A stretch of DNA of 64,000 bases from Promethearchaeia archaeon (lineage in GTDB: Archaea; Asgardarchaeota; Lokiarchaeia; Sigyniarchaeales; SOKP01). The notes beneath the pieces are model-generated. The model had not been told where the DNA came from. It was given only the letters and a program-made list of their open reading frames with translations, and did no database searches. The position numbers and the translations under genes were made by a program. Below are positions 24,853 through 42,506 of the stretch, piece by piece (position 1 is the first letter of the stretch; each line of letters opens with the position of its first letter). The stretch covers positions 14,653-78,652 of the forward strand of contig JAWOCD010000085.1 of NCBI GenBank assembly GCA_046483985.1, given 5' to 3'.

Positions 24853-25944
24853 ATGACAACCGGAATAATTTACGATGATATCTACCTTGAGCACCGCATC
24901 GGAACCCATGTGGAGAGCCACAAACGGCTTATCGGAATTATGGATTTATTACGAAATAGAGGCTTATTAGATAATCCGGATTATCAAGTTATCAAACCGT
25001 ATAAGGCAACCCTGGATCAAATCAAATATGTACACAATGTAGAATTAATCAAAGAAGTAAAAGAAATTAGCAAATTAGCCGAGAAAACTGGGCATATCCA
25101 ACAGCTTGATATGGACACCTCCGTTTCTGCAAAAACTTATGAAGCGTCCCTTTATTCTGTGGGAGGAAACTTGAAAGCTATCGATGAAATCCTCAATGGA
25201 AACATCAAAAACGGATTTGCTTTAGTAAGACCCCCCGGTCATCACACGAATGCGTATAAATGTTCTGGATTCTGTTTTTTTAATAACATAGCAATTGCAA
25301 CGGAGTACTTATTAAGAGATAAAGATATTGATCGGGTCGCAATTATTGATTGGGATTGTCACCACGGCAACGGCACTCAAGATATTTTTTATAAAGGCTC
25401 ACCTTCGGGTGAAGGCGAGGTTGTCTTTTTTAGTTCTCATCAAGATGGGAGGACCCTGTATCCAGGAAGCGGGTTTGAAAATGAGATTGGAGAGGGAAAC
25501 GGAAAGGGCCATATCATTAATTTTCCCATGCCACCTAACTCTGCCGACGATGCGATTATGGAATTCTTTCATGAAATAGTATCACCTCTCTTAAACGAAT
25601 ATGCTCCCCAATTTATCTTGATCTCTGCAGGATTTGATACCCACTACACAGATCGCCTCACAGGGATGGGTTGGACTTACCAAGCTCCGGCCAATTATCT
25701 CAAATTAATTAAAGCCATTGCACATGAATATGCAAACGATAGAATATTAATTACCTTAGAAGGGGGATATGATATAGATAAACAAGCACGGGCGGTATAT
25801 AATTGCCTCAAGGTACTTAATGATGAGGAGGACTTAATCACGGAAAAGCCCAGAACGTCCGACTCCGAACTGTTGACATACTTAGATGGGAAATTGTTTC
25901 CGAAATTAAAGGAAAATCTGGCGCCATTTTGGGAATGCTTTTAA
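24853..25944 (+). CDS. Histone deacetylase family (class II-like) Zn amidohydrolase
   Basis: RPPGHH, GFCFFNN, DWDCHHGNGTQ, SAGFD, LEGGY. Confidence 0.93.
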   Translation: MTTGIIYDDIYLEHRIGTHVESHKRLIGIMDLLRNRGLLDNPDYQVIKPYKATLDQIKYVHNVELIKEVKEISKLAEKTGHIQQLDMDTSVSAKTYEASLYSVGGNLKAIDEILNGNIKNGFALVRPPGHHTNAYKCSGFCFFNNIAIATEYLLRDKDIDRVAIIDWDCHHGNGTQDIFYKGSPSGEGEVVFFSSHQDGRTLYPGSGFENEIGEGNGKGHIINFPMPPNSADDAIMEFFHEIVSPLLNEYAPQFILISAGFDTHYTDRLTGMGWTYQAPANYLKLIKAIAHEYANDRILITLEGGYDIDKQARAVYNCLKVLNDEEDLITEKPRTSDSELLTYLDGKLFPKLKENLAPFWECF

Positions 25945-26156: not shown

Positions 26157-27254
26157 ATGTCGGACGAGAATGAAAAAAAAGAAGATAAAGATGATGATCT
26201 TGATTTAGATTTTGACTTACCGGATTTGGGCTTAGAAGATGAGGAGGAACCATCAATGCCTCCACCGACCGAAGCTCCCCCCTCACCGGCACCGACAGAA
26301 CCATCAGCACCGACAGAACCATCAGCACCGACAGAACCATCAACTATGAAAGCACCAGAACCCACCTCTTCATCCCCTTCCCCTGAATCCACACCCTCGC
26401 CCACACCAACTACCGAATCTATGTCCGCACCACCTTCGCCTACACCCTCAACCGAACCAGAATCAACTGCTCCCTCTCAAAATGAATTGGATAATATGCA
26501 ACAACAAGTAAGCGCGAAGGACCAAAAGATAAATGAACTTCAAAACAAAATAAATGAATTGAACAACCAACTGAGTCAAGCAAGCGGAGAAACATCCAAC
26601 CTTCAATCCCAATTGACCCAAAAGGAGAACCAGATCAACCAACTGAATAATGAATTGCAAAATACAAAAAATTCGATGCAACAGTTACAATCGCAAGTTA
26701 ATCAATTACAATCCGAAAAAGAACAACTCCAAGATCAAATTCCGAACTTGCAACAGCAAATACAACAGCTACAGCAAGAGAAAGCTAATTTGCAAGGTCA
26801 GATCCAACCTCTCCAACAAAAAATACAGCAATTGGAGCAAGATGTTGCGTATAAGGATAAACGTATCAAAGAATTGAAGGAACCAAAGGCAGTTATGGGC
26901 TCGTCTCTCTCTCAAGAACAACCAAGCTCTCCAGGAGCTTCTCAAAGCAGTAGTTCATTTGGAAGCTCCTCTTCCAGCGTAATGGGGGGCGGCGGACAAA
27001 CAGGAACATCTGGCACTACTGGAGGCGGTACGGGAGGCGGTACGGGAGGCGGTACGGGAGGCACTACTGGAGGCGGTACGGAACAGACTCCCTCGGTGGA
27101 CGTAGGAGGCACTCGAACAAAGTGTCCAAATTGTGGAGCAACCGGTCAAGCCATTAAGGAAGTTGAAGATAAAAGTAAAGTCATCAGCTATATCCCCAAA
27201 CCAATTTATGCCAAGAAGTATGTGTGCACTAAGTGTGGATATGAATTCTCATAA
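26157..27254 (+). CDS. Low-complexity / Gln-rich coiled-coil protein with C-terminal zinc ribbon
   Basis: Acidic N-terminus, Pro/Ser/Thr tract, ~135-aa heptad Q/N-rich coil, Gly/Thr linker, CPNCG...CTKCGYEF. Confidence 0.85.
   Translation: MSDENEKKEDKDDDLDLDFDLPDLGLEDEEEPSMPPPTEAPPSPAPTEPSAPTEPSAPTEPSTMKAPEPTSSSPSPESTPSPTPTTESMSAPPSPTPSTEPESTAPSQNELDNMQQQVSAKDQKINELQNKINELNNQLSQASGETSNLQSQLTQKENQINQLNNELQNTKNSMQQLQSQVNQLQSEKEQLQDQIPNLQQQIQQLQQEKANLQGQIQPLQQKIQQLEQDVAYKDKRIKELKEPKAVMGSSLSQEQPSSPGASQSSSSFGSSSSSVMGGGGQTGTSGTTGGGTGGGTGGGTGGTTGGGTEQTPSVDVGGTRTKCPNCGATGQAIKEVEDKSKVISYIPKPIYAKKYVCTKCGYEFS
26289..26342 (+). repeat. 18-bp tandem repeat x3 (APTEPS)
   Basis: gcaccgacagaaccatca three times. 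Confidence 0.95.
27021..27080 (+). repeat. 12-bp tandem repeat x5 (GGGT/GGTT)
   Basis: ggaggcggtacg x3, ggaggcactact, ggaggcggtacg. Confidence 0.92.
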
Positions 27255-27520: not shown

Positions 27521-30500
27521 ATGTCGTTAGAGAGAGAACTCTTAGAGCCGCAAATTAACAAAAAACGTGCTGCTGCCGTTTTTTTAATTGCTATCCTCTT
27601 AATCGCTTTTTTTTCACTCTCTACTGTATTATTCAACTTTTTATTGGGTTCACAACGTATAAATCCCAATGAAAAGCTTGATGATGCGGATTTTGAGGAT
27701 GTTACCTTAAATATGCCCGACATTCCCTTTGATCTGGAAGATCTTATTGATGCGTTGGATCCGGAAGATTTGGAAGATTTAGACCTAACTGAAGAGGATA
27801 TCGATGAACTCTTCCAAGAAATGTACGATGGCGATATCGATAATATGGACTTAAGCACGATGGGAGCAGCAATGGCAGCTCTCCTCGGGTCCGATGAGGA
27901 GGTATTTCGAATTTTTGATTACGACAATTTTGACAATTTGTCCGATAAGCTCTGGCGCTATGAATGTTTTGAAGAGTATAACGGAACCAGCTGGAAATCT
28001 TCGGCAAGTAAACAAATATTCGATTTTTATTCGTATGGGGATTTAGAGGGAAGCGAAGACATTTTGAGGTTAAAGAGGGCCATGAATCCCTCATCAGATC
28101 AGAACTCATTTGTGGCTCCCGCTCTTTTTCCGAATCCTAATATTATGGAAGGGAGCGTGAGCGGAGATACCTTGGATGAGAGTTCTGCAACACTTTACAA
28201 GGATGATTATAATTGCACCACCATGGATGCAACCTTTACCAGCGATCAAGAAACCAATATGTCGTATGAATTATTTGGAACGCCCCAACCCAGCCCCGAA
28301 GATTTAAATTCGAGCCAAGTTGACGAGTCCTTTACTCCATCCGCAATTAGAGACCTCTATTTACAACTCCCGCCCTCAATCTCCACTTACAGGGCCAATC
28401 ATGATGACTTTGACAGGCATTGCGACAACTTAGAGGTCATCATTAAGGAAGACGATGGGGCATATACAGTCGCAAATAAGATACGGAACTATTTGCAAGC
28501 GAATTTTACCGATCCCTACAGTGGAGGAGCAGAGATTTATACGGATGATGGCCCCGCAGAAGGAGAGGATGAAATAGAATGGTTCTGTGAAAAGGAGGGG
28601 GGGTTATGGTCTCATTTCGCTTCAGCTTTTACTGCATTTACCCGGGTATTCGGTGTTTCTAGCAGATATGTTAACGGATTTAATAGTCGGGCCCTCGATG
28701 AGGTCTCTGACCCTCAAGAAGGAGAAGATGCGGCGGTGGTCCGATATAAAAATTTGTATAATTGGGCAGAAATCTATGTTCCTACAGATACCTCTGGAAA
28801 TGGACGTTGGGTGGAGATGGATATTAATTTCGAGACCTTTGGAAGTGGAGGAATGACCGCGCCAGAAGGGGAATATAATATTACGCTTACTTCTAATGTT
28901 ACTGGACCGATAAATCGTGGAAATATTGCAGAACTGAATGCCTCACTGAGTTCAGATACGGGAGATGTAGAGGATAAGGAAATAAAGTTCTATGATCATA
29001 ATAATCCTGAGACACCATTAGGTTCTGCAATTACTAATGCCAATGGAAATGCCACTCTACTCGTTGATATTAATGATACACAAGTTGTGGGCCCTCATAA
29101 TATTTATGCTACTTATTACACCTCCTATTCAAATCCGATAACTTATTTAATTAACGATGATATTGTCGTTCATTTATCCAGGGTTAATCCGCAAGAAGTT
29201 AATAGATCGGATTCTAATCCCGATGAGACAACTATTAAAGGTAATGTCTATGATCCTGCAAATAATGAAGGGGTGCGGGATGCTGATATTGAATATGTAT
29301 TGTTAGAAAAAGGAACCAATAACAAATATAATAGTGCATTTACTCCAAATTGCTCACAAACAAATAGCACGGGAGATTTTGAAGATACTATTTCTGTTAA
29401 TGCCCCACCAGCAGCACCTTATGGAACATTTGATATAAGAGTTGATTTTAATGGAACGTGGAATGATGGTCTTTATGTATCTGAGCTCATGGAAAATTCC
29501 AGTAATCGCATCGAGTTTAATCATACGAGTACTCATAGTGTTAACTTTTACATAAACAACACTGATTCAACCAATTATGAAAATCCCACGGTAAATAGAA
29601 CCGATTCGTTACATTTAAAAGCGAAAGTCGTTGCTTCCGATGGTTCGACAATTCCAGATAAGGATGTGCAATTTATTAATGCCGATAACAATTCTACACT
29701 TTTCACAAATACTACAAATGCTGATGGACTTGCCACCTATACCTTTGATTTAAATTCCTCTGTTTTGGCGGGTCCAAACTTACTCTGTGCTCAAGTGGGA
29801 TATGTCACCAATTATTCCTATTTTGTTTTGGAAGAGAAACCAACCATTCATATAAATTCTGGACCAACTCCCAGAGAGATAAATAGAACAGGTTCAGGAA
29901 TTAAAGAATTTTCTATTCCTGGCAGCATTAATGATACTAATGGCAATCCAATTCCATATGCCGAAATTGGATTGAGGATATTTAGAAATTCAACAGATTT
30001 CTCCGAGTATTTAAGTCCCCCTGATCCTCCCAAGGTTAATTCTGACGGAAAATTTAATTTTACCTACGGAGTTTCTGAAAATATTCCATACGGAAATTAT
30101 ACATTACGGATGGACTTTAACGGCACAGTGGATCGGTCAGACGATTCAGATTATCCTCATTATTTTGAATTGTCCGAGATGGATAACTCAACCATTCTTA
30201 CAGATGAGTTAAAGGTTGAGGCACCTGATGAGTTCACAATGGATTTTTTCATTGATGGATACAGCAATGATGATTTTTATTCGCCTAATATTACCCGAAA
30301 TGATGAAGTAAACTTATCGGTTGAAATCCAATGGGGTATGGATCTTGCAAAGGACGGAGATATCGTTACCTTCAGGGACCATACTCAAGATCTCGTTATC
30401 GCCGAGAAAGAACTTAGTAACGGTCAAGCGAGTGTTAGTTATGAAATGAATGATACTATTGTGGCAGGACCCCACCTTATTTCCGCAAGCTATGATAGAG

Positions 30501-31990
30501 CTGGAGCTGGAGAAAAAAATCATTCTTATTTCATTTTGGATGCTCCTATTGATATTGACCTGGATTTTGTCCCGCAAACAATTAATAGTACCGGGAACAT
30601 CGGTAGGAATTTTGTTGTTCGCGGTTCTTTGAAAGATCCTTCAAACAGTAAATCTGTTAAATATGGGCAAATTTCAGTCCATATGCTTGATGGTAATGAC
30701 GACGTTTCTTTCTATCTCAATCAAGAAGCGGGGGATTTGGCTCTAAATGAGACAGGGGAGATTTATGCCGAATTTAGCGTTAGCGAGAGTACACCTCCAA
30801 AAAATTATACAATAGAGACTCGTTTTAACGGCACCTTTTTGTACACCAATTCTGAAGAAGATTACCAATATGATTATTTCTTGCCCGAATGGAGCAATTT
30901 CTCGGCGGCGAACGAAAGTGAAAATGAACTAGAAGTAATTAACCCTGAAGAATTATCTATTACATTTAAAATCGGAGGAGAACATACAAGACCAACCTAT
31001 GATAATAGTAATCCACCTGCAACATATCAAAAAGGAGAGAATGCCACCTTTGAGGTCTGGGTCAATCATACGACAACGGATGAAGGAACTGTCCGGCTTA
31101 TGGACAATTACACCGGAACTGAATTGGATTCTGCCGAAGTTAATATAACTGAGGGGGGATATCATGAATTTAGTATAAATACCACCGATTTGCACGCTGG
31201 ATTACATAGAATAATTGTTACTTATGAGGATTTCAACACGATTAATGATACATATATAGTAATAAACGAGAGTGTAGATATCTCCAGTGAACTAAGTGTG
31301 GAAAAAGTAAGGAGAAATCAAAATGGATTTTCGGTAGAGGGAAATGTCACCGATGAGGGTGAACCCTTAAGAGCCTTAAATCTTAGCATTAATTTCTATG
31401 ATTCCTCAATGCAAGATGCTTCGGATTATTTCAATTTAGAAGGATCTTCGTCCATAATAGTTCAAGAAGATGGGACATATTGTTTTAATATCAGCTACGT
31501 GGATCTGGAGGCTCCTCAAGGGCAGTATTATGTGCAGATTAATTTCACGGGCGATATAATTGAATTACCGGATGTTCATCTCACCGATTATATGGTCCAT
31601 AGCAACAGTAGTTGTATGACCTTGAATGTAACGGCGGGTACTACTATTACCGAAGGAGATTCTTATACTTTAAATGAAAAAGAAGAAAAATGGTATAATG
31701 ATGATATTCTATACGTTACCGGTAATTTAACGTGGGATAACGGAAGCGCAATGGAAGGGTATAATGTGAATGTGACCATAGAGGATGAAAACGGAAACGT
31801 TATAGCATTCAATGATACGGTGACCGTCGATTCCAGCGGCTTTTTCAACGGCTCGCTTACTGTTGACTCGAATTGGCCAACCTATCAAGAAGATACAAGT
31901 ATTAAGGTCGAGTTTAATCCCTTTGATGAGCATAATTTTGACATGACAGATGGTTATTATGTTGAAGGTTCTAGTCAAGAATATACTTAA
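27521..31990 (+). CDS. Large membrane-anchored surface protein: inactive transglutaminase-like domain plus tandem Ig-like repeats
   Basis: N-terminal TM, LWRYECFEEYNGTSW, GLWSHFASA..R..G...RYVNGF / YNWAEIY / WVEMD; repeated beta-rich modules (GPH, FNGT); many N-x-S/T sequons. Confidence 0.85.
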   Translation: MSLERELLEPQINKKRAAAVFLIAILLIAFFSLSTVLFNFLLGSQRINPNEKLDDADFEDVTLNMPDIPFDLEDLIDALDPEDLEDLDLTEEDIDELFQEMYDGDIDNMDLSTMGAAMAALLGSDEEVFRIFDYDNFDNLSDKLWRYECFEEYNGTSWKSSASKQIFDFYSYGDLEGSEDILRLKRAMNPSSDQNSFVAPALFPNPNIMEGSVSGDTLDESSATLYKDDYNCTTMDATFTSDQETNMSYELFGTPQPSPEDLNSSQVDESFTPSAIRDLYLQLPPSISTYRANHDDFDRHCDNLEVIIKEDDGAYTVANKIRNYLQANFTDPYSGGAEIYTDDGPAEGEDEIEWFCEKEGGLWSHFASAFTAFTRVFGVSSRYVNGFNSRALDEVSDPQEGEDAAVVRYKNLYNWAEIYVPTDTSGNGRWVEMDINFETFGSGGMTAPEGEYNITLTSNVTGPINRGNIAELNASLSSDTGDVEDKEIKFYDHNNPETPLGSAITNANGNATLLVDINDTQVVGPHNIYATYYTSYSNPITYLINDDIVVHLSRVNPQEVNRSDSNPDETTIKGNVYDPANNEGVRDADIEYVLLEKGTNNKYNSAFTPNCSQTNSTGDFEDTISVNAPPAAPYGTFDIRVDFNGTWNDGLYVSELMENSSNRIEFNHTSTHSVNFYINNTDSTNYENPTVNRTDSLHLKAKVVASDGSTIPDKDVQFINADNNSTLFTNTTNADGLATYTFDLNSSVLAGPNLLCAQVGYVTNYSYFVLEEKPTIHINSGPTPREINRTGSGIKEFSIPGSINDTNGNPIPYAEIGLRIFRNSTDFSEYLSPPDPPKVNSDGKFNFTYGVSENIPYGNYTLRMDFNGTVDRSDDSDYPHYFELSEMDNSTILTDELKVEAPDEFTMDFFIDGYSNDDFYSPNITRNDEVNLSVEIQWGMDLAKDGDIVTFRDHTQDLVIAEKELSNGQASVSYEMNDTIVAGPHLISASYDRAGAGEKNHSYFILDAPIDIDLDFVPQTINSTGNIGRNFVVRGSLKDPSNSKSVKYGQISVHMLDGNDDVSFYLNQEAGDLALNETGEIYAEFSVSESTPPKNYTIETRFNGTFLYTNSEEDYQYDYFLPEWSNFSAANESENELEVINPEELSITFKIGGEHTRPTYDNSNPPATYQKGENATFEVWVNHTTTDEGTVRLMDNYTGTELDSAEVNITEGGYHEFSINTTDLHAGLHRIIVTYEDFNTINDTYIVINESVDISSELSVEKVRRNQNGFSVEGNVTDEGEPLRALNLSINFYDSSMQDASDYFNLEGSSSIIVQEDGTYCFNISYVDLEAPQGQYYVQINFTGDIIELPDVHLTDYMVHSNSSCMTLNVTAGTTITEGDSYTLNEKEEKWYNDDILYVTGNLTWDNGSAMEGYNVNVTIEDENGNVIAFNDTVTVDSSGFFNGSLTVDSNWPTYQEDTSIKVEFNPFDEHNFDMTDGYYVEGSSQEYT

Positions 31991-32014
31991 TATAATCAAG
32001 AAGGTCAAATGTAA

Positions 32015-33646
32015 ATGGTGGGATTGAAAAGAAAAAAGAGCAGAAATAAACCCCGCATAAAAATATTAATTATCCTTTCCCTTTTCATTTTGATAATCTT
32101 TTTAAGGGGAAGGGACAATTTACCAGATATCAGCGATTATTCAAGTATGCAAGATATCAAAGATAGGGACCGTTCTCAAGATTTGAAGCTTTCTTCTATT
32201 GAAGCTAATTTAACTTTAACAAATGCGGAAATGATTAATAATTCAAGGTTTTCTCATTATCAAAACATTCCAATCAATGGAAATCTTATTCATGCTATAT
32301 CTGGTGATCCATATCCGAATTATAGTGTTTCTGTTAAAGTTAATGGTGAATTATTTCCTCGCTATAATGCCACAACAGACGAGGACGGTAATTTTACCAT
32401 CAATTATAATATCTCAGATTCACTTAATATTTATACTTCTCATAAAATCGAGGCCGAAGTTCTTAATGATACGGAAAGTGATATAGATTATCTCAATCAT
32501 TATATTATCTTTTTAAATACGACTTCTGAATTTGATATAGATGAGGGTGATTGGTCAGATACCGATATTCCTTATCTGACCGGAGAGCCTTTTAACACAA
32601 ACGGATATTTAAGATATGTTAATGGGACGGGAATTGCAGGGGGGATAGTAAATTTTTATTGGTATCATGATGGAGAAGTGCTTGATTCTGGAACGACATC
32701 AACTAATAATAATGGGGAGATAAATTCCTTGCCAATCCCAGAAACTGAATTGGAAGAACTATCATTAAAATTAAACTTCTCCGATTTCCCTTATGTGAAT
32801 TATTCGGAATGGATTCTTCCAGAAACAATTGAAGTTTTTTCCAATATTTCGTGTCAGTGGGATGTAGAAAGCACCTCTACGGAATTTGAGGATTTTACCA
32901 TTCAAGGTACCCTTGTATCGTCAGCCAATAGTAGCTTTTTTATTAATGATCGCCAGATTGCACTTTTATATAATGGAGAACTGGTTGGCCAGGTGAGCAC
33001 TAATAGTGATGGTTCGTTTTCCTATACATATAATATCCCTGAAGGAACGGGAGCCAATAATTTACAAATAAGATTGATTAATGATGCGGGAAAAATTGAA
33101 ACGTCTAATAGTTACACTATTGAGGTGTATGAAGGAGAAGAGGAAGCAGTCGTTCCACCCGACGATACAGAAGATGATACGCCAGCCCCGTTTGTAAACT
33201 TTTTTATTTATTTTATTCCGATTGTAGCGGGGATTATTGTAGCCTTAACACTACTGGGGTATAAATACCTACGACAACAAGAGGAGGCTTCAAGAACGGT
33301 CAAAGTACCTTTGGGAGACAAATTACTTAATTTAAAAATGCTGAAAGAGTCAGGAAGATTAGAAGAAGCATTATCTTATCTTTTTAATGCGATATATATG
33401 GATTTAATTAACGCAAAATTTGGTCGCAGCAAAAAAGCGTCTGAGACCATCAGGGATATTGCGATTGTGTCGGTAAAAGATCTAAAACTTCCGCCGGAAA
33501 AAATATATCCCTTCATCACGAAGATCGAAGAAGTTATTTATGCTCGGCCACATAAAATAACCGAAGAGGATTTTAAAAAGGCGCTTGCGCTATTTTCACC
33601 GGTCTACTATGAATTGACGAGTCAAAAATTTAATTTAAAAATTTAA
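32015..33646 (+). CDS. Ig-like repeat surface protein with C-terminal TM and cytoplasmic DUF4129-like domain
   Basis: Basic-hydrophobic N-terminus, three TxxxG-type beta modules (TTDEDGNF, TNNNGEI, TNSDGSF), TM (FFIYFIPIVAGIIVALTLLG), SETIRD...IEEVIYA. Confidence 0.8.
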   Translation: MVGLKRKKSRNKPRIKILIILSLFILIIFLRGRDNLPDISDYSSMQDIKDRDRSQDLKLSSIEANLTLTNAEMINNSRFSHYQNIPINGNLIHAISGDPYPNYSVSVKVNGELFPRYNATTDEDGNFTINYNISDSLNIYTSHKIEAEVLNDTESDIDYLNHYIIFLNTTSEFDIDEGDWSDTDIPYLTGEPFNTNGYLRYVNGTGIAGGIVNFYWYHDGEVLDSGTTSTNNNGEINSLPIPETELEELSLKLNFSDFPYVNYSEWILPETIEVFSNISCQWDVESTSTEFEDFTIQGTLVSSANSSFFINDRQIALLYNGELVGQVSTNSDGSFSYTYNIPEGTGANNLQIRLINDAGKIETSNSYTIEVYEGEEEAVVPPDDTEDDTPAPFVNFFIYFIPIVAGIIVALTLLGYKYLRQQEEASRTVKVPLGDKLLNLKMLKESGRLEEALSYLFNAIYMDLINAKFGRSKKASETIRDIAIVSVKDLKLPPEKIYPFITKIEEVIYARPHKITEEDFKKALALFSPVYYELTSQKFNLKI

Positions 33647-33750
33647 CCGTTTCACCAGACAAGTTATAAAAAAAATGTGTGAATTAAAAAATCAAAATTT
33701 AAATCAAAAAACCATTATAAATTATATATATTGAAAATAAAACATCTTAG

Positions 33751-34131
33751 GTGGGAAAAATAGGATTATTCTCAAAAGAGGAACAAAAAAAGTTTGATAT
33801 CGAGGATAAATTCGAGAATGTTCAAATTTTAGTCGATAGCGACAGATCGAAGGAGGCGATCGCATATATTTATTTAATTTACAATGATCTCATGAAACAT
33901 GAATACGATAAACCACGACTTGCCCATCAAACTATTCGGGAATATGCGATAAAATGTGTTAATGACCTAGATCAAAATCCTGGCTCCGTATATACTTTTA
34001 TTAAAAAGATTGAAGATATTATTTATGGGGGCGTTGAGCCAACCATTCCAGAAATAAATAAGACGATAAATCTCTTTTCGTCCTTATACCAAGAAATCAC
34101 CAATAAGAGTTTCTCTTATAATATTAAATAA
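33751..34131 (+). CDS. Stand-alone DUF4129-like protein (paralog of the preceding gene's C-terminal domain)
   Basis: EAIAYIYLIYNDL / QTIREYAI / FIKKIEDIIYG align with EALSYLFNAIYMDL / ETIRDIAI / FITKIEEVIYA. Confidence 0.8.
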   Translation: MGKIGLFSKEEQKKFDIEDKFENVQILVDSDRSKEAIAYIYLIYNDLMKHEYDKPRLAHQTIREYAIKCVNDLDQNPGSVYTFIKKIEDIIYGGVEPTIPEINKTINLFSSLYQEITNKSFSYNIK

Positions 34132-34194
34132 TCTTTTCATTATAATTAAAAAAGAAATTATAAAATTTAATCAAAACTGACTTTTGAGTGAACG

Positions 34195-35943
34195 ATGGCT
34201 ATATTTAGTGGAAAACCTTCAGAAAAGAGTATTAATATTTCAAAGGGTATATTATATGGGTTCTTTACCTTTTTTCTTGTCTTTTACGGGGTTATTCTTA
34301 CCGTTTTCATTCAAGAGTTTGGAAGACAACATCCGGGAATTTTTCCCTATTTTGTGAACTATTTCCCGCTTGTATGCTATATCGCCGCTATTTTCATGGG
34401 TCTCCGCTTTTTAATTTTTATTCGAAACAAAAGGACCAGGAAGGTCAGAGAAAAGCGTTCTCGAAAAAAACTCAAAAAGGGGTCTGTCTATCGAAAGGCG
34501 TTATTTTTAATTATTTTTATCTTTTCCTTTGTACCTCTCTTATCTCCGGTAATTGATCAAGGCAAGAACGACCATAATTTTTCTGCTTATAACGAGGGTT
34601 GGAACGGCGGTTCAGATTTTAAAGCCTTGGTAGAAGATGAGGGATATGAGACCTATAATGTTCAATCGAGTCTGAGTGCCACTCAACGTCTCAATAAATC
34701 AATGCTGTTAGTCTTATTTGGTCCCAATCAATTTTATAATCCAATCTATGAGATTCCGTTTTTTATAAATTTTTTCGAAAATAATAATTCGCTCTTGCTC
34801 TTACACGATTTCGGGTCCACTAGTGCGCTGTTGTGGGAAATTTTTGCCGCAAACTTGGCAGATCCGAACGTAAAAGATAAAACTCCTGTAACTATCTTTC
34901 CAGATGGGGTTCTACGAGACAATGAATCATGTTTAGTGAACGAGGAAGGAAAAAAAGATCCCCAATTCCCGGTCGTAACGAACTTTCAATCGCATCCTAC
35001 AACTGAGGGGGTGAATAATGTTCTTCTTGCTCGAGCATCCGCTGCCTTGGGGGGACCTTTTCTTGAGTACTTCGGCTGGAATCCGATTGCTTATACCAGC
35101 ATGTATAGTTTTATTGATAAAAATGAAGATGGAGTATATAACATAGAAGACGATAATATTGATCTAAGTTTCATTGATAATGTGATAGGGGAAGACTTTC
35201 CATTAGATCTGAGTAAATTCCCTCTGGGGGGGTATCCGCAAACTCCGTTTATGAGTAAACAAGCGGATAACGTAAGACTTTTTGTCTCGGGGGATGCGAG
35301 TCTTTTCAATAATGATCTTTTGAACCGAGAAGAATTTGACAATGCACGGTTTGCTCGGAATATAATAAATTGGTTAACCTATGAAAATGGAGAGGATTGG
35401 ATAGTTGTATTTGATGAAGCACATATTAGGCCTGAATATTCCCGAGATTTGAGTTCTGCCGGCATTTTTGGGTTTATTATTCAATATGTGGTGCATTTAT
35501 CTACTAATCCGATTACGGCATGGATTTATCCGCTGCTGGCCATTTATCTTTTACGAAAGTATCTTCCTAAAAAAAAGGAGAAGGAAAGGGAAGAAAAGGA
35601 GAAACAAGAAGAAGAGAAGAGAAAATTTAGGACATCCTCCTTTTTTGCACGTAAAATTAAATGGTATCGTTCAAACCAAAAATTCGATAAAGCTCTCTTG
35701 CTTTTATACAGGCGTTTAGAGCGAAAACTTAATGCCCAATTGGGAGGGAAAAATATCACCACTGAAAATGTGATTAACATGGTTTCTGCAAAGGTTCCAA
35801 ATATATCAAAACAGAAGTTGAAACGAATTGGTAAATTTATGAATAAAATATTAGCAATAAAGAAAAACGAACTGGATGTTCAAGACCAGAAGGATTTTGA
35901 GAATTTATTCTTCGAAATGGAATGGGTTATGGAAAACATCTAA
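34195..35943 (+). CDS. DUF4350-like (GldG/GIFT-like) membrane protein
   Basis: 3 N-terminal TMs, FSAYNEGWNGGSDF, SGDASLFNN, DNARFARNIINWL, VVFDEAH, TM, cytoplasmic helical tail. Confidence 0.8.
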   Translation: MAIFSGKPSEKSINISKGILYGFFTFFLVFYGVILTVFIQEFGRQHPGIFPYFVNYFPLVCYIAAIFMGLRFLIFIRNKRTRKVREKRSRKKLKKGSVYRKALFLIIFIFSFVPLLSPVIDQGKNDHNFSAYNEGWNGGSDFKALVEDEGYETYNVQSSLSATQRLNKSMLLVLFGPNQFYNPIYEIPFFINFFENNNSLLLLHDFGSTSALLWEIFAANLADPNVKDKTPVTIFPDGVLRDNESCLVNEEGKKDPQFPVVTNFQSHPTTEGVNNVLLARASAALGGPFLEYFGWNPIAYTSMYSFIDKNEDGVYNIEDDNIDLSFIDNVIGEDFPLDLSKFPLGGYPQTPFMSKQADNVRLFVSGDASLFNNDLLNREEFDNARFARNIINWLTYENGEDWIVVFDEAHIRPEYSRDLSSAGIFGFIIQYVVHLSTNPITAWIYPLLAIYLLRKYLPKKKEKEREEKEKQEEEKRKFRTSSFFARKIKWYRSNQKFDKALLLLYRRLERKLNAQLGGKNITTENVINMVSAKVPNISKQKLKRIGKFMNKILAIKKNELDVQDQKDFENLFFEMEWVMENI

Positions 35944-36102
35944 GGTTTTCTAAAATTTCTTTTTCTTTTTTATTTTTACTTCTAAAAGTATAAACTAATC
36001 TCTCTTTTTTTTTAGCCACATAGATTTATAACGCAAAATTACCAAATAGACCAAGTTGATTGATTATGAACAATATCAAAAATGGGAGGAATAAAAAAAT
36101 AT

Positions 36103-37080
36103 TTAAATCGGAACAGGAATTTCCTCTAAGATACTATTAATTACTCCCTTAACATCTAAACCCTCTAATTCCGCTTCGGGTTTTAGTAAAATACGATGAT
36201 TTAAGGCGGGGATTGTTAAGGCTCGTACATCATCAGGGGTTACATAATTCCTGCCAAGAATCGCTGCGCGCGCTTTTGAACATTTCATTAACACAAGCGA
36301 TGCTCTTGGGCCTGCTCCCATATAAATCTGCGGATGATTTCGAGTCTTTAATGAGATGTCCCGGATATATTTAAGAATTCGTTGGTCAATATAGACTAAA
36401 TTCATAAGATCTTGAGCTGCCAACAGCTCTTCAGCATCAGTTACTGGTTCAATTGAAGGTAAATGACCGCTGAGTTGCCTTGACATGATTTCAACCTCTT
36501 CATCTTGTTCTGGATAGTCTAACCAAAGCTTGAAAAGAAATCGGTCAACTTGTGCTTCGGGGAGGGGGTATGTCCCTTCCATTTCCACGGGGTTCTCAGT
36601 TGCTACCACTAGAAAAGGTTTTTCTAGTTCTAATGTTTTCCCTTCAATGGTTACTTGTCGTTCTGCCATCGCTTCGAGAAGTGCAGCTTGCGTTTTAGGG
36701 GCGCTCCGATTAATTTCATCCGCTAAGACTAAATTAGCAAACACTGGCCCCTTTTGAAGAACAAAACCTCCCTCATTTTGATCAAAGATTTTTGTACCAG
36801 TAATATCGGCCGGTAAGAGATCGGGGGTAAATTGAATTCTGGAAAATGAGATTCCAAGCGTTTTAGCAAAAGTTTTTGCCATCACCGTTTTACCGAGTCC
36901 AGGGACTCCTTCCAGTAACACATGACCATTAACTAAAAGGGCAATAAATAATTGCTGCAAGATTTCCCCATTTCCAACAATAACTCGGCTAACTTCACTT
37001 AAAACTTCTTGAGCAATTTCACGAATCGGTGAAACATCTAATTCCTCTTGTTGTTCATAATATTGGGCTTTTTCAGCCAT
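36103..37080 (-). CDS. moxR: MoxR family AAA+ ATPase
   Basis: GHVLLEGVPGLGKT, RIQFTPDLLPADITG, LADEINR, ATENPVEMEGTYPLPEAQVDRF. Confidence 0.96.
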   Translation of the reverse strand: MAEKAQYYEQQEELDVSPIREIAQEVLSEVSRVIVGNGEILQQLFIALLVNGHVLLEGVPGLGKTVMAKTFAKTLGISFSRIQFTPDLLPADITGTKIFDQNEGGFVLQKGPVFANLVLADEINRSAPKTQAALLEAMAERQVTIEGKTLELEKPFLVVATENPVEMEGTYPLPEAQVDRFLFKLWLDYPEQDEEVEIMSRQLSGHLPSIEPVTDAEELLAAQDLMNLVYIDQRILKYIRDISLKTRNHPQIYMGAGPRASLVLMKCSKARAAILGRNYVTPDDVRALTIPALNHRILLKPEAELEGLDVKGVINSILEEIPVPI

Positions 37081-37345
37081 TGAGAATTCACTTCTTTAAA
37101 TCTTTACTTATCAATAAAAGATATTGATTTAATTTATATAATTATAAGATAAATCAATTTTATATTTTTATTTTTTCGCGTTCGATTTCTTCAACAATCT
37201 ATGCGCAATTCATAAAAAGTAAAAATATATAATTTATAATTATTATTATAATTAAAAATAGAATTTCTCACAGTGAGAATAAAAAATATAAACCCATTTT
37301 TTTTAGGAACGGTGAAGTGATATTTTAGGTGGAAAAGGGCGCTTA

Positions 37346-38650
37346 TTGGTCATGTTTTCCATATTCTTTTTATGTGCGGGATTTGCATTTATCAATTATT
37401 TTTTGATCTTCTTTGCCATTTTATTATTATTCAGTACTATTATCAGTTTGCCCGTGTTTTATTATCAAACAAACATTGAAGAACTCAAAGTCCATCGCGA
37501 GCTTGAAAAGAAAAAGATTTTTAAAGACGATTTCGTCCATATTAAAGTAACCATAGAGAATATAGGAAATAGCAGTTTCGATTTTATAGAAATTCGTGAT
37601 CAATTTAATCCAGAATTGTTTCGCCTTGTTTTGGGAGAAAATTTCATATCAACCCGAATTGGAAGAAAGAGCACGATAAAATTTTCTTATGTGCTTGAAC
37701 CGAAAGTGAGAGGAGAATATCCTTTAGGTCCACTCTCTGTAACGGTAAAAGATCGTTTGGGGTTTAACTCACTTGAGAGAGTTGTACCAGATAGTGTGAC
37801 GGATATTTTGATTTATCCTCCTTATGAAGATATAAAACGGATTGAAATTCTTGGATCAAAACGGTCATTGCAACTGAACTATGGAGCACAACGCTCCAAG
37901 CAGAAAGGTCTCGGAAGCGAGTTTTACGGAATGCGGAAATATGTTTTTGGTGATCAATTTCGCCTAATCGACTGGAAAGCATCTGTACGGACACAAAAAC
38001 TAATTGTCAAAGAATTTGAATCAGAAAGAGATATCACCTGTATGATTTTGGTGGATTCTTCAAACAGTATGGCAGGTGGGGCAATAGATAATACTAAATT
38101 CGAATATGCCATACGTGCATGTATGTTATTAACAAAGGTGGCATTAACAAGAAGAGACCAAGTGGGCGTATTTACCTTTTCAAATAATAAAAATATGAAT
38201 CTTTCTGAGCCGAAGGGAGGAGAAGACCAGTTCTATCAAGTTTTAGATGCAATTGCCAAGGTAAAACCAGAAGGACAGTGTAAATTTAGAGAATCTATGG
38301 ACTATTTCACAAAACGCCACCAAAAACGGAGTTTAATTTTTATTATCTCTGATCTAGAACCAGATGTAAAAGACATCGTGGAGGGAGTCCGAAAACTTAT
38401 TCCCTTTGACCATACCATAATAATGATTAATCCGTTTAGCCCATGGTTTGAGATTCATGAGACGGATTTATCTTCCACGGATAAAGCCCTTGCAGAGGCG
38501 ATCTCCGAGGAGATGATGGAACATGTATTACATATAAAACAAGAGGTACGAAATTTGGGAGTCAGTTTAATTCATGTAGGGCCAGACGATATGATGCAAA
38601 ATACATTAACCAAGTATTTAGAGGCAAAAAAAAAGGGGAGGGCCTTCTGA
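37346..38650 (+). CDS. DUF58 / vWA domain protein with N-terminal TM hairpin
   Basis: RGEYPLGP, GSEFYGMRKYVFGDQFRLIDWKAS, LIVKEFESE, MIDAS DSSNS, IISD. Confidence 0.92.
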   Translation: MVMFSIFFLCAGFAFINYFLIFFAILLLFSTIISLPVFYYQTNIEELKVHRELEKKKIFKDDFVHIKVTIENIGNSSFDFIEIRDQFNPELFRLVLGENFISTRIGRKSTIKFSYVLEPKVRGEYPLGPLSVTVKDRLGFNSLERVVPDSVTDILIYPPYEDIKRIEILGSKRSLQLNYGAQRSKQKGLGSEFYGMRKYVFGDQFRLIDWKASVRTQKLIVKEFESERDITCMILVDSSNSMAGGAIDNTKFEYAIRACMLLTKVALTRRDQVGVFTFSNNKNMNLSEPKGGEDQFYQVLDAIAKVKPEGQCKFRESMDYFTKRHQKRSLIFIISDLEPDVKDIVEGVRKLIPFDHTIIMINPFSPWFEIHETDLSSTDKALAEAISEEMMEHVLHIKQEVRNLGVSLIHVGPDDMMQNTLTKYLEAKKKGRAF

Positions 38651-38652
38651 TT

Positions 38653-40107
38653 ATGGCGAGATATTATTTAACCGTCTTGAATATTATAAACGCCTTAATT
38701 TTTATTTGGATTATTGTTCTTTTTAATTCTATTTTCAATTTCGATCTAGTCATCACCACCGCTGAAAACGAGTTAGTATTTTGGGATGTACTCATCGCCT
38801 TGCGAAATATTCTTACATATGGGGCATATTTATTTCTCTATATTGTGGCATATTTTACTGCGCTAATTGTAAGCGGAGTATTTAGCTCTTTTGCTTATTT
38901 TGAGACCAATTTTATGTTTAATTTTATCGGTTTCTTCTTTAAATTTTATTTAGAATCGTGGTTTAATTTTCCAGGGGGAGAAACTCCCTCATTGATCAGG
39001 ATTCCCGCATTAATGGCACAAGAAGCATCGGTATTTACTAATAATTTATATTTGCTAATCTTCCAGATTTTATTTGTAATATCTGTATTCTATGCGATTC
39101 GCGCCATTTTTAAAAACGACGTGAAATATAATTTTATAGCAATTGGAAGTTTAGTTCTCATGATTGTTATGCCTTTAATGATTTTTGGATTTCGGGATAT
39201 GTTACGCTTATTTACCTTAAAGGTTCCTTTTCTTGAAAATCTGGAAAATCCAGTAGATCCAAGCCTCACTGAATTACCGCTTAATGATTTCTTTGGATTT
39301 ATATTTAGTTCGATTTTCTTATTTGCCATAATCAGCTATATTTATTTGGAAATGGCTTTTCAGATTAGTTATATTGATACAGTCACCAAACCCAGTCTTG
39401 AGAGAGAAGACCGATTAGAGGCTCAAATTGATCTTCTACGCAAAGAATCTGCTCATATTACAGCTAATGTTGATAAAATACGGGAGGAAGCACAACAAAG
39501 AAAAGAAGAGCTTGGCATTGAAAAAAAAGAATCTGTAAGAGAATTTTTTACCCAGAAAGAAGAAAGGTTTTCCTATGTAAAAGAGATGGTACGGCGTAAA
39601 AAATTGGAGGAAGAAGAGAAAAAATTGGTGACCGCAGCTTCCAAAACTCGCAGATTAGGTAGATATATTGATCGATTATTCCGTGAAGATCCGGAAGCTG
39701 AAGATGCCATCACAGCAAAGTCATCAGCGCCCACTCCCAAGAGTCTTGCATCGTCTACTGGTCTCAATTTTGCATTTCGATTAATTCTATTAATCTTTCT
39801 CAGTTATATTATTATTCATCCTCATTGGTTTTTTAAGGAAGTATTTAATTTACCACCCTCTATTATTGAAAGTGTTTCAATGTATTCTCCCGAGGTTATC
39901 ATTACTTTAATGATACCATTTGTTCTTTTATTTCCGGTAATTTCAAAGGTAATTTCCTATATTAAACATCGTAATCTAATCATTCGTTTGAAACAAGAAG
40001 GAAGAATCAAAGAGATTTTGGCTTCAGTCGGAGACTATGTAAAAAAAATGGAGGAAGGAGAAGAAATAGCTCAAGAAGAAGATCTAGAGGAAGAAAGCGA
40101 AGAATAA
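38653..40107 (+). CDS. Hypothetical polytopic membrane protein with large cytoplasmic charged loop
   Basis: About 7 hydrophobic segments, ~140-aa E/K/R-rich helical loop; starts 2 bp after the DUF58 stop. Confidence 0.8.
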   Translation: MARYYLTVLNIINALIFIWIIVLFNSIFNFDLVITTAENELVFWDVLIALRNILTYGAYLFLYIVAYFTALIVSGVFSSFAYFETNFMFNFIGFFFKFYLESWFNFPGGETPSLIRIPALMAQEASVFTNNLYLLIFQILFVISVFYAIRAIFKNDVKYNFIAIGSLVLMIVMPLMIFGFRDMLRLFTLKVPFLENLENPVDPSLTELPLNDFFGFIFSSIFLFAIISYIYLEMAFQISYIDTVTKPSLEREDRLEAQIDLLRKESAHITANVDKIREEAQQRKEELGIEKKESVREFFTQKEERFSYVKEMVRRKKLEEEEKKLVTAASKTRRLGRYIDRLFREDPEAEDAITAKSSAPTPKSLASSTGLNFAFRLILLIFLSYIIIHPHWFFKEVFNLPPSIIESVSMYSPEVIITLMIPFVLLFPVISKVISYIKHRNLIIRLKQEGRIKEILASVGDYVKKMEEGEEIAQEEDLEEESEE

Positions 40108-40140: not shown

Positions 40141-41079
40141 CTATAAATCTAAAATAAATTGCGCTAATTTTTTCTTTTTTTCCATATTAGTCATTAAGGT
40201 ATCATAGCATGAGACTTTCATTCCTTTCTCTTTGATATTCGATTTTTGTTCGCGATCCTTTTCATCGATTACGAAGTGCCCTACAATATCGGCATAGTAT
40301 TTTGCAACCCCCCCACAAGTTGCATCGTAACCCATCGCTTTCATCAATTTATCGGCGGGTCCCTTTATTGTCCCCCCTTGTATAATCGGACTAACGGCAT
40401 AGACTTTATTTTTAAATTCCCTTAGTTTATACCTTACTTCGCCAACCTGCAGTATGGTTCCTATTGATACAATAGGGTTCGACGGAGAGATTATAATCTT
40501 CGTTGCATTTTCCAAATATCTCATTACTTTCTCTTCTGGTTTAGCGTCGTTCATGCCCTTAAATTCCACATTAAGGATTTCGGGTTTACATTTATATTTA
40601 ATATAATACTCCTCGAAATGCATCTTTCCTTTGGGAGTATCGATAAACGTCTGAACGTTTTCATTACACATAGGGATAAGTTCGGCTGAGATATTTAATT
40701 TCTTACAAATTTTCTTAGTTACCTCTGCCTTGGTAAATCCTTTTTGTAACATATCTGTTCGATATATATGCGTTGCTAAGTCTTTATCGCCGAGATTGAA
40801 CCATCCTAAGTCATAATACTTCTTTAAGATTGAGAGACAATTAAAAGATTCGCCTTGAAACCCCCATCCTTTATCTTTATCTACAAGGTTTGCTAAAGTA
40901 TAAGTAATGATATCCAAATCAGGACATATTTTCAATCCAAATAACTCAATATCATCTCCTGTATTAATAATGATTTTGAGTTTTTTAGGATCACAGACAT
41001 GCCGCAATCCATCAAGAAATTTTGCCGCTCCGACTCCGCCTGCTAAGATTACATAAAATTTATCTTCCATAAAATTCAT
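40141..41079 (-). CDS. cofD: 2-phospho-L-lactate / PEP transferase (F420 biosynthesis)
   Basis: LAGGVGAAKFL, INTGDD, ICPDLD, WFNLGDKDLATHIYRT, PSNPIVSIG, KGPADKLM. Confidence 0.95.
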   Translation of the reverse strand: MNFMEDKFYVILAGGVGAAKFLDGLRHVCDPKKLKIIINTGDDIELFGLKICPDLDIITYTLANLVDKDKGWGFQGESFNCLSILKKYYDLGWFNLGDKDLATHIYRTDMLQKGFTKAEVTKKICKKLNISAELIPMCNENVQTFIDTPKGKMHFEEYYIKYKCKPEILNVEFKGMNDAKPEEKVMRYLENATKIIISPSNPIVSIGTILQVGEVRYKLREFKNKVYAVSPIIQGGTIKGPADKLMKAMGYDATCGGVAKYYADIVGHFVIDEKDREQKSNIKEKGMKVSCYDTLMTNMEKKKKLAQFILDL

Positions 41080-42494
41080 TTCTCGTTATTTAATTTATAA
41101 ATAATTTCATTTAGATCCTTGCGATAAGGGGGTTTAATTTGTTTACGAGGACGTCCCACAGTGATAAAAGCCATGGGCTGAAAACTGGGAGGCAGATCTA
41201 AAAACTTTTTGACAATTTCCTTAGCAAATAAAGGAGCACAATACCAACAAGATGCAAGACCCCTTGATTGGAGAGCAATCAGAAAATAAATTGCTGATGC
41301 GCTAACAGATTGTACTCCTAATAAAAATTCGTTCTCATTTCGTTTCTCATCGGGATATGTTTCGAGGTCTCTTTCATCTAAAGAGAGTAAGATTAAATAA
41401 GGTGCAGCCAAAAAACGTGCCCGGGTTTTTTCAATTTTTTTAGAGATGAACTTCTCCTCCCTTCCGTCTGCTCTAAGATCCTTCCTTAGTTTCTCATTCA
41501 TTCGATTTATTAATTGTTCCCGTAGTTTGCTCTTTTTTTTTAAGATGCTGTATCTCCAGAATTGGCCATTATGAGCGCTGGGAGCCCAACGAGCGATTTC
41601 TATACATTCCTCTATTAGGGCTTTATCCACTTCTTTTTGAGAAAAGGGTAATTTATAGCTCCTTCTTCTTTTTAATACCTTTTCGACTATGTCTTCTTGA
41701 TTTTCTGGTCTAAAAAGATCTGATGATTTATCTCTGAGGATTGAGTTAATAGATACATCTTCATCATACTTATATCTATATCCTCTAACGAGTACAACGG
41801 GATTTCCTTGGTCTCCTTCTCCCATGATTAACTGAGCTGCAGAGGCTAAATTATCCGCTTGCGCCACAATTGTACTCTTCAACTTATTTCCGTATAAATC
41901 TTTCTTTCCCCTCTCATCCTTTAGTGGACTAATCCCAGATATCCCTATTGCGACTCCAACAGAACCAACTCGAAAGGGTCTTCCAAAAGAATCGGTAATA
42001 ATCACGGAAATAGACTTATGAGTTTTTTGTTCTAATTTTTTTCGGATTTTATTTGCAATTTGATCAGAATTTGAGGGTAGGATAGTAACGAAGTCCTTCC
42101 CTTCAATATTTGATGCATCGATTCCTGCATTTGCACAGATAAACCCTTGCTCTGTCTCTGTTATAATTACATGTTCATATTTTAATACGTTTTTGCTTTC
42201 TTGTAAAATAAGTTCAATTAATTGGGGAGATTTAATTGGAAGGTCCCTTTTTTGCGCTTTTTCTTTTACTTTCTTATAGATTTTAAGAGCTTGCTGACTT
42301 GGATCTACTTTACTTAAATCTCGAGTATAATTCTCCGCTTTAGAAATAATAGATTGGGCAATTAATAAAATATCTCCATCTTCTAAATTTCCATTCATTC
42401 CCTCTAAACTTTTTAAAATATGAGATACGATATTATTTCCGGATTTGACCAATGGAAAGTTTTCCAATCCAATTAATTTAATTTTATTCTTCAT
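41076..42494 (-). CDS. cofE: F420:gamma-glutamyl ligase fused to C-terminal nitroreductase (FbiB-type)
   Basis: ICANAGIDASN, ITDSFGRPFRVG, ADNLASAA; C-terminal RRS, WAPSAHNGQFW, GLASCWYCAPLF. Confidence 0.93.
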   Translation of the reverse strand: MKNKIKLIGLENFPLVKSGNNIVSHILKSLEGMNGNLEDGDILLIAQSIISKAENYTRDLSKVDPSQQALKIYKKVKEKAQKRDLPIKSPQLIELILQESKNVLKYEHVIITETEQGFICANAGIDASNIEGKDFVTILPSNSDQIANKIRKKLEQKTHKSISVIITDSFGRPFRVGSVGVAIGISGISPLKDERGKKDLYGNKLKSTIVAQADNLASAAQLIMGEGDQGNPVVLVRGYRYKYDEDVSINSILRDKSSDLFRPENQEDIVEKVLKRRRSYKLPFSQKEVDKALIEECIEIARWAPSAHNGQFWRYSILKKKSKLREQLINRMNEKLRKDLRADGREEKFISKKIEKTRARFLAAPYLILLSLDERDLETYPDEKRNENEFLLGVQSVSASAIYFLIALQSRGLASCWYCAPLFAKEIVKKFLDLPPSFQPMAFITVGRPRKQIKPPYRKDLNEIIYKLNNEK

Positions 42495-42506
42495 TTTGCT
42501 CTAATT

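Follow-up and report, generated by a model that had tools for sequence, protein, structure and literature searches.

Gene content of the locus

We analysed a cluster of seven genes (g1 to g7) in a window of 64,000 nucleotides from Promethearchaeia archaeon, an Asgard archaeon whose genome assembly (GCA_046483985.1) comprises 4.06 Mb in 128 contigs. The window is the stretch from 14,653 to 78,652 on the forward strand of contig JAWOCD010000085.1, and all positions given below are counted from its first letter. Prediction of open reading frames (ORFs) and domains identified seven ORFs that fill positions 27521-40107 (Table 1). They encode two putative surface proteins (g1 and g2), a free DUF4129 domain (g3), a DUF4350 protein (g4), a MoxR ATPase (g5), a DUF58 protein with a von Willebrand factor A (vWA) domain (g6) and a polytopic membrane protein (g7). 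The gene content and contiguity reported in an initial annotation of this sequence were thus recovered, with caveats for some of the domain calls that we describe below. We find that the cluster is the Asgard lineage form of a module predicted in 2015, DUF4129/TgpA-DUF4350-MoxR-DUF58, and not a new class of machine.

The initial annotation described a contiguous block and missed that moxR (g5) is encoded on the minus strand. The genes are contiguous, but given the orientation of moxR the block consists of three transcription units. A tblastn search showed that the cluster is single-copy in its own genome. A hydropathy scan assigned one N-terminal transmembrane segment (TM) to g1, two to g2 including its anchor, three plus one to g4 and about seven to g7.

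Table 1. Features of the seven-gene cluster, with positions in the window. aa, amino acids; Ig, immunoglobulin; MIDAS, metal-ion-dependent adhesion site.
Feature	Position	Strand	Description
g1	27521-31990	+	1489 aa; N-terminal TM anchor (aa 20-38), acidic linker, transglutaminase-like domain, ~1000 aa of Ig-like modules
g1 transglutaminase-like core	28463-28822 (aa 315-434)	+	Pfam Transglut_core, 3.7e-10
g2	32015-33646	+	543 aa; signal anchor, sequon-rich Ig-like ectodomain, TM (aa 396-414), cytoplasmic DUF4129 tail
g2 DUF4129 tail	33287-33643 (aa 425-543)	+	similarity to g3 (tblastn) and profile-profile comparison
g3	33751-34131	+	126 aa; free soluble DUF4129 domain, five-helix bundle
g4	34195-35943	+	582 aa; three N-terminal TMs, DUF4350 ectodomain, TM, conserved charged cytoplasmic tail
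g5 (moxR), MoxR AAA+ ATPase	36103-37080	-	325 aa; AAA_3 and AAA_lid_2
moxR/DUF58-gene divergent spacer	37081-37345	.	265 bp, AT-rich, read from the sequence
g6, DUF58 protein	37346-38650	+	434 aa; ~38-aa hydrophobic stretch, Ig-like domain, DUF58/vWA with MIDAS
g7	38653-40107	+	484 aa; polytopic all-helical membrane protein with long cytoplasmic coiled-coil hairpin

Conservation and synteny across the Asgard archaea

We used g7 to follow the cluster across the phylum. The gene occurs once per genome in all 41 genomes of the order. It was detected in 124 of the 151 sampled genomes of the phylum, including 72 of the 73 high-quality ones. The seventh protein had been described as an extra subunit of this version of the system, and these counts instead identify it as a core component that is phylum-wide.

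We then scored 35 loci around g7 with profiles built from the first orthologues; these loci span about 20 Asgard families and include a 1.4-Mb genome. The DUF58 gene directly adjoins g7 in 34 of the 35 loci, and in the remaining one moxR lies between them. moxR itself is present in 33 of the 35. DUF4350 was found in 30 of the 33 loci that are uncut by contig ends, and a DUF4129-bearing protein is encoded directly 5' of it in 28 of the 29 loci where this could be assessed. The order transglutaminase/DUF4129-DUF4350-MoxR-DUF58-g7 is thus kept across about 20 families whose proteins are 20-40% identical. Scattering of the genes among relatives had been named as an outcome that would speak against a common system; the mapping shows synteny in 35 loci.

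In many other lineages a single gene takes the place of the first three. One protein of 826-2261 aa matches g1, g2 and g3 together in 12 loci, with the layout TM-transglutaminase-Ig-TM-DUF4129, and tblastn places the g1 and g2 matches contiguously in a single ORF of relatives. Because one protein matches all three, we consider that g1, g2 and g3 act together. A free DUF4129 protein of 121-172 aa precedes DUF4350 in 16 loci of several families, as it does here. The split and duplicated DUF4129 that the initial annotation attributed to this version is therefore supported by homology, and its split state, judged from the sequences, is not peculiar to this genome.

The surface proteins and the pseudo-transglutaminase

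Apart from the transglutaminase core, g1 matches Big_3_5 (3.5e-19) and, more weakly, macroglobulin-type and CarboxypepD_reg Ig-like families. The Pfam matches of g2 are weak and Ig-like only. Self-comparison of g1 by blastp detected no repeats, whereas windowed Smith-Waterman alignment detected a period of about 230 aa in the ectodomain (z up to 16 relative to shuffles). The protein ends without a TM or a DUF4129 domain and has no C-terminal anchor; the TM and DUF4129 domain that share a protein with its counterpart in the 12 fused loci lie here on separate proteins, g2 and g3. Searches of the N-terminal third of g1 by sequence found no relative of solved structure.

We aligned the transglutaminase-like domain of g1 with 15 Asgard orthologues. 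The catalytic Cys is replaced by Trp363 (28607-28609) and the His by Tyr413 (28757-28759), and Asp434 is retained, so that g1 lacks the catalytic triad of TgpA-like enzymes. The proposal of a dead enzyme domain is therefore upheld, and on these substitutions we regard the domain of g1 as predictably inactive. Loss of the Cys is common among the 16 aligned Asgard domains: W, F, S, G, P or Y occupies its position in 14, and Cys, His and Asp are all intact in two, namely the domain of locus L027 and the first domain of locus L030. In L030 (L030:6804-11516, genome G046) two transglutaminase-like domains stand in tandem, the first with Cys, His and Asp and the second with Pro at the Cys position.

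Both proteins carry many N-x-S/T glycosylation sequons. There are 59 in g1 where 22 are expected from composition, and 13 in the ectodomain of g2 where 6.7 are expected; the g2 tail has none. They also differ from the cytoplasmic components in their rate of change. Within the family, identity is 31-43% for g1 and 32-42% for g2, compared with 78-88% for MoxR and 71-82% for DUF58, which indicates that the surface proteins evolve fast and that the motor is conserved.

The DUF4129 domains

The C-terminus of g2 is 37% identical to g3 over 114 aa (tblastn, E 1e-13). Neither matched the Pfam DUF4129 family (PF13559) directly, and g3 matched no Pfam family. We compared a joint g2/g3 profile with the C-terminal tails of the fused Asgard orthologues and obtained a strong match (hhalign, 99.7%, E 4.7e-27). 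Because these tails match PF13559 in 11 out of 11 cases (best 7e-15), we assign the g2 tail and g3, at the level of sequence profiles, to true but divergent DUF4129 domains. In 27 aligned DUF4129 sequences the sole invariant residue is a Glu, E88 of g3.

A sequence search with the DUF4129 profile found no relative of solved structure. The AlphaFold2 model of g3 is a five-helix bundle with a predicted local distance difference test score (pLDDT) of 94.1. Its Foldseek and VIA-align matches are mostly proteins of the HEPN fold (2hsb, Z 8.4; 3mfn, Z 9.1). We considered a HEPN ribonuclease and dropped it, as Z is only 7-9 and g2 and g3 lack the R-x4-6-H motif. The top VIA-align row was 9cap_B with Z 9.8, but with a root-mean-square deviation of 7.8 over 108 residues. 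We take this chain to be Spigot, since its 181 residues fit the modelled residues 7-187 of that protein. Spigot is the C1orf43 orthologue in the LPD-3/BLTP1 complex, with a TM, a linker and a cytosolic four-helix bundle; this subunit crosses the membrane once and docks on BLTP1/LPD-3, a bridge-like lipid-transfer protein, at contact sites between the endoplasmic reticulum and the plasma membrane (bioRxiv 10.1101/2024.06.21.600134). The Pfam family of C1orf43, NICE-3 (PF07406), matches four of 27 Asgard DUF4129 domains, with a best E of 5.8e-5 that is below the 22.7-bit cut-off. Scores of this kind are in the range of chance matches between helical bundles, and we treat the similarity as a lead and not as a result.

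Homology between the Asgard cytoplasmic DUF4129 bundle and the four-helix bundle of eukaryotic NICE-3/C1orf43/Spigot is accordingly a tentative idea that we consider doubtful. If it were true, DUF4129 and Spigot would both be modules made of a TM, a linker and a docking bundle, and a eukaryotic contact-site component would have a prokaryotic relative, and possibly its origin, in a near-universal Asgard cluster. DUF4129 would then also be predicted to form a pad close to the membrane on which a large cytoplasmic partner docks, here DUF58/MoxR.

The DUF4350 protein

The assignment of g4 to DUF4350 (PF14258) is borderline: it scored 30.3 bits by hmmscan against a cut-off of 30.4, and 30.8 bits, above the cut-off, in a whole-genome search. 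A TM follows the DUF4350 ectodomain, and the form found in this order has three extra N-terminal TMs. An alignment of the cytoplasmic tails showed that the tail is charged and conserved among orthologues. Its similarity to DUF4129 is weak against the profile of the fused tails (69%) and absent against the g2/g3 profile. Comparison of g4 with plasmids gave no match. Among the control genomes, that of Haloferax volcanii gave a match to PF14258.

MoxR and its inversion

The g5 protein matches AAA_3 over the full profile (9.6e-65) and AAA_lid_2 (6.5e-22), with Walker A from aa 58 and Walker B from aa 120. Its AAA core and lid, together with a DUF58 partner gene 265 bp away (divergent here), identify it as a MoxR protein of the MRP type. 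In most of 33 relatives moxR and the DUF58 gene are adjacent and co-directional. The inversion is shared by only one of the 33 other loci with moxR, L037 in genome G009 of the nearest sampled genus, and was therefore inherited and is not an assembly artefact. tblastn splits the moxR of L037 (G009:C55) into two pieces in different frames, which may reflect a frameshift or an assembly error. We searched for inverted repeats flanking moxR that could explain the inversion and found none beyond AT-rich chance matches. The 265-bp spacer between moxR and the DUF58 gene presumably holds both promoters.

A sister family has a different arrangement, in which moxR is separated from the DUF58 gene by an insertion of 2-7 kb that holds unrelated genes (L018:3352-10758, L019:12680-17049 and L024). 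The inserted genes encode a tetratricopeptide-repeat protein, a leucine-rich-repeat protein, a serine recombinase (resolvase) and a DEAD-box helicase. Inversion in one case and separation in the other mean that strict co-transcription is not required. Genome G064 has, about 11 kb upstream of the main cluster, a second MoxR-DUF58 pair of divergent sequence (47% and 25% identical; L028:218-2558), which suggests paralogous modules in some lineages.

The DUF58 protein and the sidedness of the membrane

The g6 protein matches DUF58 (6.3e-32) and VWA_2 (1.5e-10), and a sequence search with DUF58 found no relative of solved structure. Its hydrophobic stretch of about 38 aa is a probable TM hairpin and is followed by positive residues. 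The MIDAS had been described as intact. D237-x-S239-x-S241 and D336 are indeed kept, and these positions are conserved in 25-31 of 31 orthologues, but the Thr position is Cys312 here and is variable in other orthologues, so that four of five positions are retained.

We assessed on which side of the membrane each protein lies from its composition, since N-x-S/T sequons are abundant in Asgard ectodomains. Over all orthologues the ratio of observed to expected sequons is 2.48 for g1, 2.30 for g2 and 0.70 for g7; it is 1.06 for DUF58 past the hydrophobic stretch (34 orthologues) and 0.95 for MoxR. Median Asn content follows the same division, with 7.1% in g1 and 8.1% in g2 compared with 2.8% in DUF58 past the hydrophobic stretch, 3.2% in MoxR and 2.9% in g7. 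The cytoplasm-like composition and the positive charges past the hydrophobic stretch support a location of the Ig-vWA part of DUF58 in the cytoplasm alongside MoxR, which is also where the initial annotation had put both. This placement disagrees with a 2015 study that labelled the Ig-vWA protein as likely secreted (PMC5898192).

The seventh protein

g7 starts 2 nt past the g6 stop codon, and the two genes overlap in relatives; g7 is translationally coupled to g6. The protein matched no Pfam or NCBIfam family. We searched a profile of 26 sequences against 1.84 billion protein representatives (E ≤ 0.001) and retrieved 146 clusters only. The weakest full-length named matches were Njord-, Baldr- and Hel-type Asgard proteins and records labelled 'Korarchaeota' that cluster with Njordarchaeia. 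A search of a protein atlas returned only clusters of its own phylum, Promethearchaeota, and the nearest metagenomic relatives are 82-84% identical. By these searches the family appears to be restricted to Asgard archaea at HMMER sensitivity.

The AlphaFold2 model of g7 (pLDDT 79) has an N-terminal helical membrane bundle, a cytoplasmic coiled-coil hairpin, two TMs and a C-terminal helix. Invariant or near-invariant polar residues lie in or near the membrane (E233, Q237, R376, S407 and E414). Foldseek against the Protein Data Bank returned nothing at E ≤ 0.001, and a wide VIA-align search returned generic helical matches only, with Z below 8. We also considered whether g7 is a divergent SpoIIM and rejected this at the sequence level (hhalign, 0.35%); no SpoIIM match was found among 26 g7 relatives.

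Comparison with known systems

The closest precedent is the set of arCOG01314 (DUF4350) neighbourhoods described by Makarova, Galperin and Koonin in 2015, in which a COG0714 ATPase and Ig-vWA, Ig-like membrane and polytopic proteins were proposed to form a novel secretion or membrane-remodelling complex (PMC5898192). The Asgard locus resembles these neighbourhoods in having a DUF4350 protein whose large ectodomain is followed by a C-terminal TM, a MoxR of COG0714, an Ig-vWA protein, Ig-like membrane or secreted proteins and a polytopic protein. The accessory membrane proteins of the 2015 neighbourhoods have five TMs (arCOG07126 and arCOG11232); g7 is likewise polytopic and matches no Pfam or NCBIfam model. 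It differs in three respects. The 2015 paper has no transglutaminase-like or DUF4129 component (0 occurrences, PMC5898192), whereas the Asgard locus has both. The vWA protein was predicted there to be secreted, whereas the Asgard DUF58 protein appears cytoplasmic by composition. Finally, the polytopic partner comes from a family found only in Asgard archaea at the sensitivity given above.

A plasmid of Rhizobium ruizarguesonis (CP140870.1) carries the order DUF4129-DUF4350-MoxR-DUF58-SpoIIM-RDD. We take this to be the cluster type represented by Rv3689-Rv3695 of mycobacteria. Its first four genes are in the same order as in the Asgard locus, and a polytopic membrane protein again follows DUF58 directly. 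However, at 251 aa the DUF4129 protein of the plasmid is small, and it lacks both a transglutaminase and an Ig ectodomain. SpoIIM (PF01944) occupies the position of g7 without similarity to it, and RDD (PF06271) is absent from the Asgard locus, where the gene after g7 is cofD. Together with the arCOG01314 neighbourhoods, this bacterial gene order argues against the idea that the system is new in kind.

TgpA, the third point of comparison, ends in a DUF4129 domain. In Pseudomonas aeruginosa its gene is co-transcribed with those for MoxR and DUF58 (PA2875 MoxR, PA2874 DUF58, PA2873 TgpA); TgpA is essential, its catalytic triad is kept and its periplasmic domain has transglutaminase activity in vitro (PMC3507681). 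Both systems associate an extracytoplasmic transglutaminase-like membrane protein with MoxR and DUF58, and the fused Asgard orthologues have the layout TM-TGase-...-TM-DUF4129 (TGase, transglutaminase). Unlike TgpA, g1 has lost the Cys and the His, and the Asgard proteins carry a single TM at the N-terminus, long stalks of Ig repeats and a high density of N-glycosylation sequons. Neither DUF4350 nor g7 is present in the Pseudomonas operon. The bifidobacterial PFNA cluster similarly brings together an Ig/FN3-type surface protein, MoxR, DUF58 and a transglutaminase-like protein, but it includes the Ser/Thr kinase Pkb2, is bacterial and genus-specific, and has no reported DUF4350 or g7 (PMC8430577, PMC6803598).

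The Asgard form is set apart by a pseudo-transglutaminase on a glycosylated Ig stalk, by both tethered and free DUF4129 domains and by an Asgard-restricted polytopic partner. Our literature search found no paper that links MoxR or this cluster to Asgard archaea.

A possible mechanism and its alternatives

DUF58 is a vWA adaptor of the kind that presents clients to MoxR-type rings (reviewed in PMC12067865). We propose that MoxR and DUF58 may remodel the tails of the DUF4129 proteins and of g4 and, in this way, assemble, mature or reset a surface complex; on the sequence evidence we consider the chances of this reading to be evenly balanced. Outside the cell there would be two heavily N-glycosylated, fast-evolving proteins, g1 (pseudo-transglutaminase and Ig repeats) and g2 (Ig), along with the DUF4350 ectodomain of g4. 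Inside there would be the MoxR AAA+ ATPase and a membrane-tethered DUF58 adaptor with Ig-like and vWA/MIDAS parts. The two sides would be joined by single-pass helices that end in DUF4129 bundles, by the g4 tail and by the polytopic g7, always coupled to DUF58. DUF58 would dock on the DUF4129 and g4 tails, possibly through the MIDAS metal and a conserved acidic residue, and would hand these tails to the MoxR ring. ATP-driven remodelling could then assemble, mature, reset or turn over the surface complex. g7 would be a membrane scaffold, and the pseudo-transglutaminase a binding or structural module and not an enzyme. The initial annotation supposed a cytoplasmic motor that would assemble or move an adhesin or filament by acting on DUF4129 tails; such an action on the tails is plausible.

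Several points weigh against this proposal. To the gene content, homologies, synteny, lost catalytic residues and inside/outside composition that we observe, it adds a direction of action and a set of protein contacts, every one of which we infer. The MIDAS has a Cys at its Thr position. If the 2015 prediction of a secreted Ig-vWA protein applied here, DUF58 would be parted from MoxR. The scaffold role of g7 is a default reading and not a finding, since its model matches no known fold, and we found no fused or longer forms of g7, including DUF58-g7 fusions, although such an absence is weak evidence. A few Asgard lineages, including some with complete genomes, are without the system: our query detected no orthologous DUF58 in two 2.8-Mb genomes that are complete or in a 4.2-Mb genome of 100% completeness. 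The linkage of the genes is also imperfect, with moxR inverted here and displaced in the sister family, and with a DUF58-g7 pair that has no other gene of the cluster within 18 kb in two of the 35 loci.

We weighed four other explanations. Following the 2015 arCOG01314 model, the cluster could be a secretion or translocation apparatus that exports large Ig-repeat proteins or deploys them at the surface; it would be formed by the DUF4350 protein, an extracellular Ig-vWA protein and the membrane subunits, with MoxR only as an assembly chaperone. The component list fits that model (DUF4350, which is GldG-like, COG0714, Ig with vWA, Ig-like membrane proteins and polytopic proteins; PMC5898192), and the large exported proteins g1 and g2 are encoded next door. 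We nevertheless consider it unlikely. The DUF58 orthologues show no sequon enrichment, have an Asn content as cytoplasm-like as that of MoxR and carry positive charges past the hydrophobic stretch. Moreover, the N-terminal anchors of g1 and g2 are ordinary and manageable by the Sec pathway, the cluster contains no channel-like or ABC component and the fold of g7 resembles no transporter.

We attach an equally low probability to an outside-in receptor. Here the variable ectodomains would bind a ligand, a partner cell or a virus, the signal would pass through the TM to the DUF4129 tails, and MoxR/DUF58 would read or reset their state. The combination of an ectodomain that varies, one TM and a small cytosolic bundle that is conserved resembles a receptor, g1 and g2 evolve much faster than the cytoplasmic parts, and the free DUF4129 protein g3 could be a competitor or an adaptor. 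However, the cluster encodes no output domain (kinase, cyclase or DNA-binding), and a near-universal, single-copy module better fits a housekeeping envelope role than a sensor.

Quite unlikely, in our view, is a set of loosely connected neighbours, in which MoxR-DUF58 would be a general chaperone pair serving, for example, metal insertion or membrane-protein quality control. MoxR-vWA pairs have many unrelated clients (PMC12067865), and both the mobility of moxR and the two isolated DUF58-g7 pairs would be expected of such neighbours. Against this, the retention of one gene order over so many families at such low identity is hard to explain without a joint function, and the first four genes recur in the same order on a bacterial plasmid. 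We regard it as highly improbable that the cluster encodes an enzyme of the kind proposed for TgpA, a transglutaminase or protease whose activity cross-links envelope proteins or trims them. In its favour, Cys, His and Asp are all retained in the domain of L027 and in the first of the two L030 domains, and the periplasmic domain of TgpA is active in vitro (PMC3507681). Against it, the Cys is replaced in 14 of the 16 Asgard domains, and the Trp and Tyr substitutions refute this for g1 itself.

Cultured Asgard archaea have an unusual cell surface. Few envelope gene sets are retained as widely as this cluster, which nearly all Asgard lineages have, those with 1.4-Mb genomes among them. Large glycosylated surface proteins tied to an internal ATPase make it a concrete candidate for a role in the construction or upkeep of that surface. 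Many bacteria and archaea have the MoxR-DUF58-DUF4129(-DUF4350) module. The Asgard form constrains it, in that the module can do without the catalytic activity of the enzyme domain, the vWA adaptor appears cytoplasmic and the DUF4129 tail may be tethered or free.

Neighbouring genes

The genes on either side of the cluster are unrelated to it. Upstream, positions 23115-25944 encode an alcohol dehydrogenase, a Ras-family small GTPase (Ras, 1.2e-38) and a protein of the histone-deacetylase family, and these genes lie upstream of the cluster in most genomes of the family. They are followed at 26157-27254 by a gene for a coiled-coil protein of 365 aa. Its N-terminus is acidic and its C-terminus is a zinc ribbon; between the two lie a stretch rich in Pro, Thr and Ser, a Gln-rich coiled coil and a linker of Gly and Thr. 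We found no relatives of this protein beyond the archaeal family to which the genome belongs. Five genomes of that family show 72-82% identity over the last 45-50 residues, and the gene is always directly 5' of g1. Downstream, positions 40141-44620 hold a tight string of minus-strand genes: cofD, a cofE-nitroreductase fusion, an 85-aa thioesterase-like fragment, a radical SAM gene and a lipoate-protein ligase gene. This string converges on g7, from which it is separated by a gap of 33 bp.

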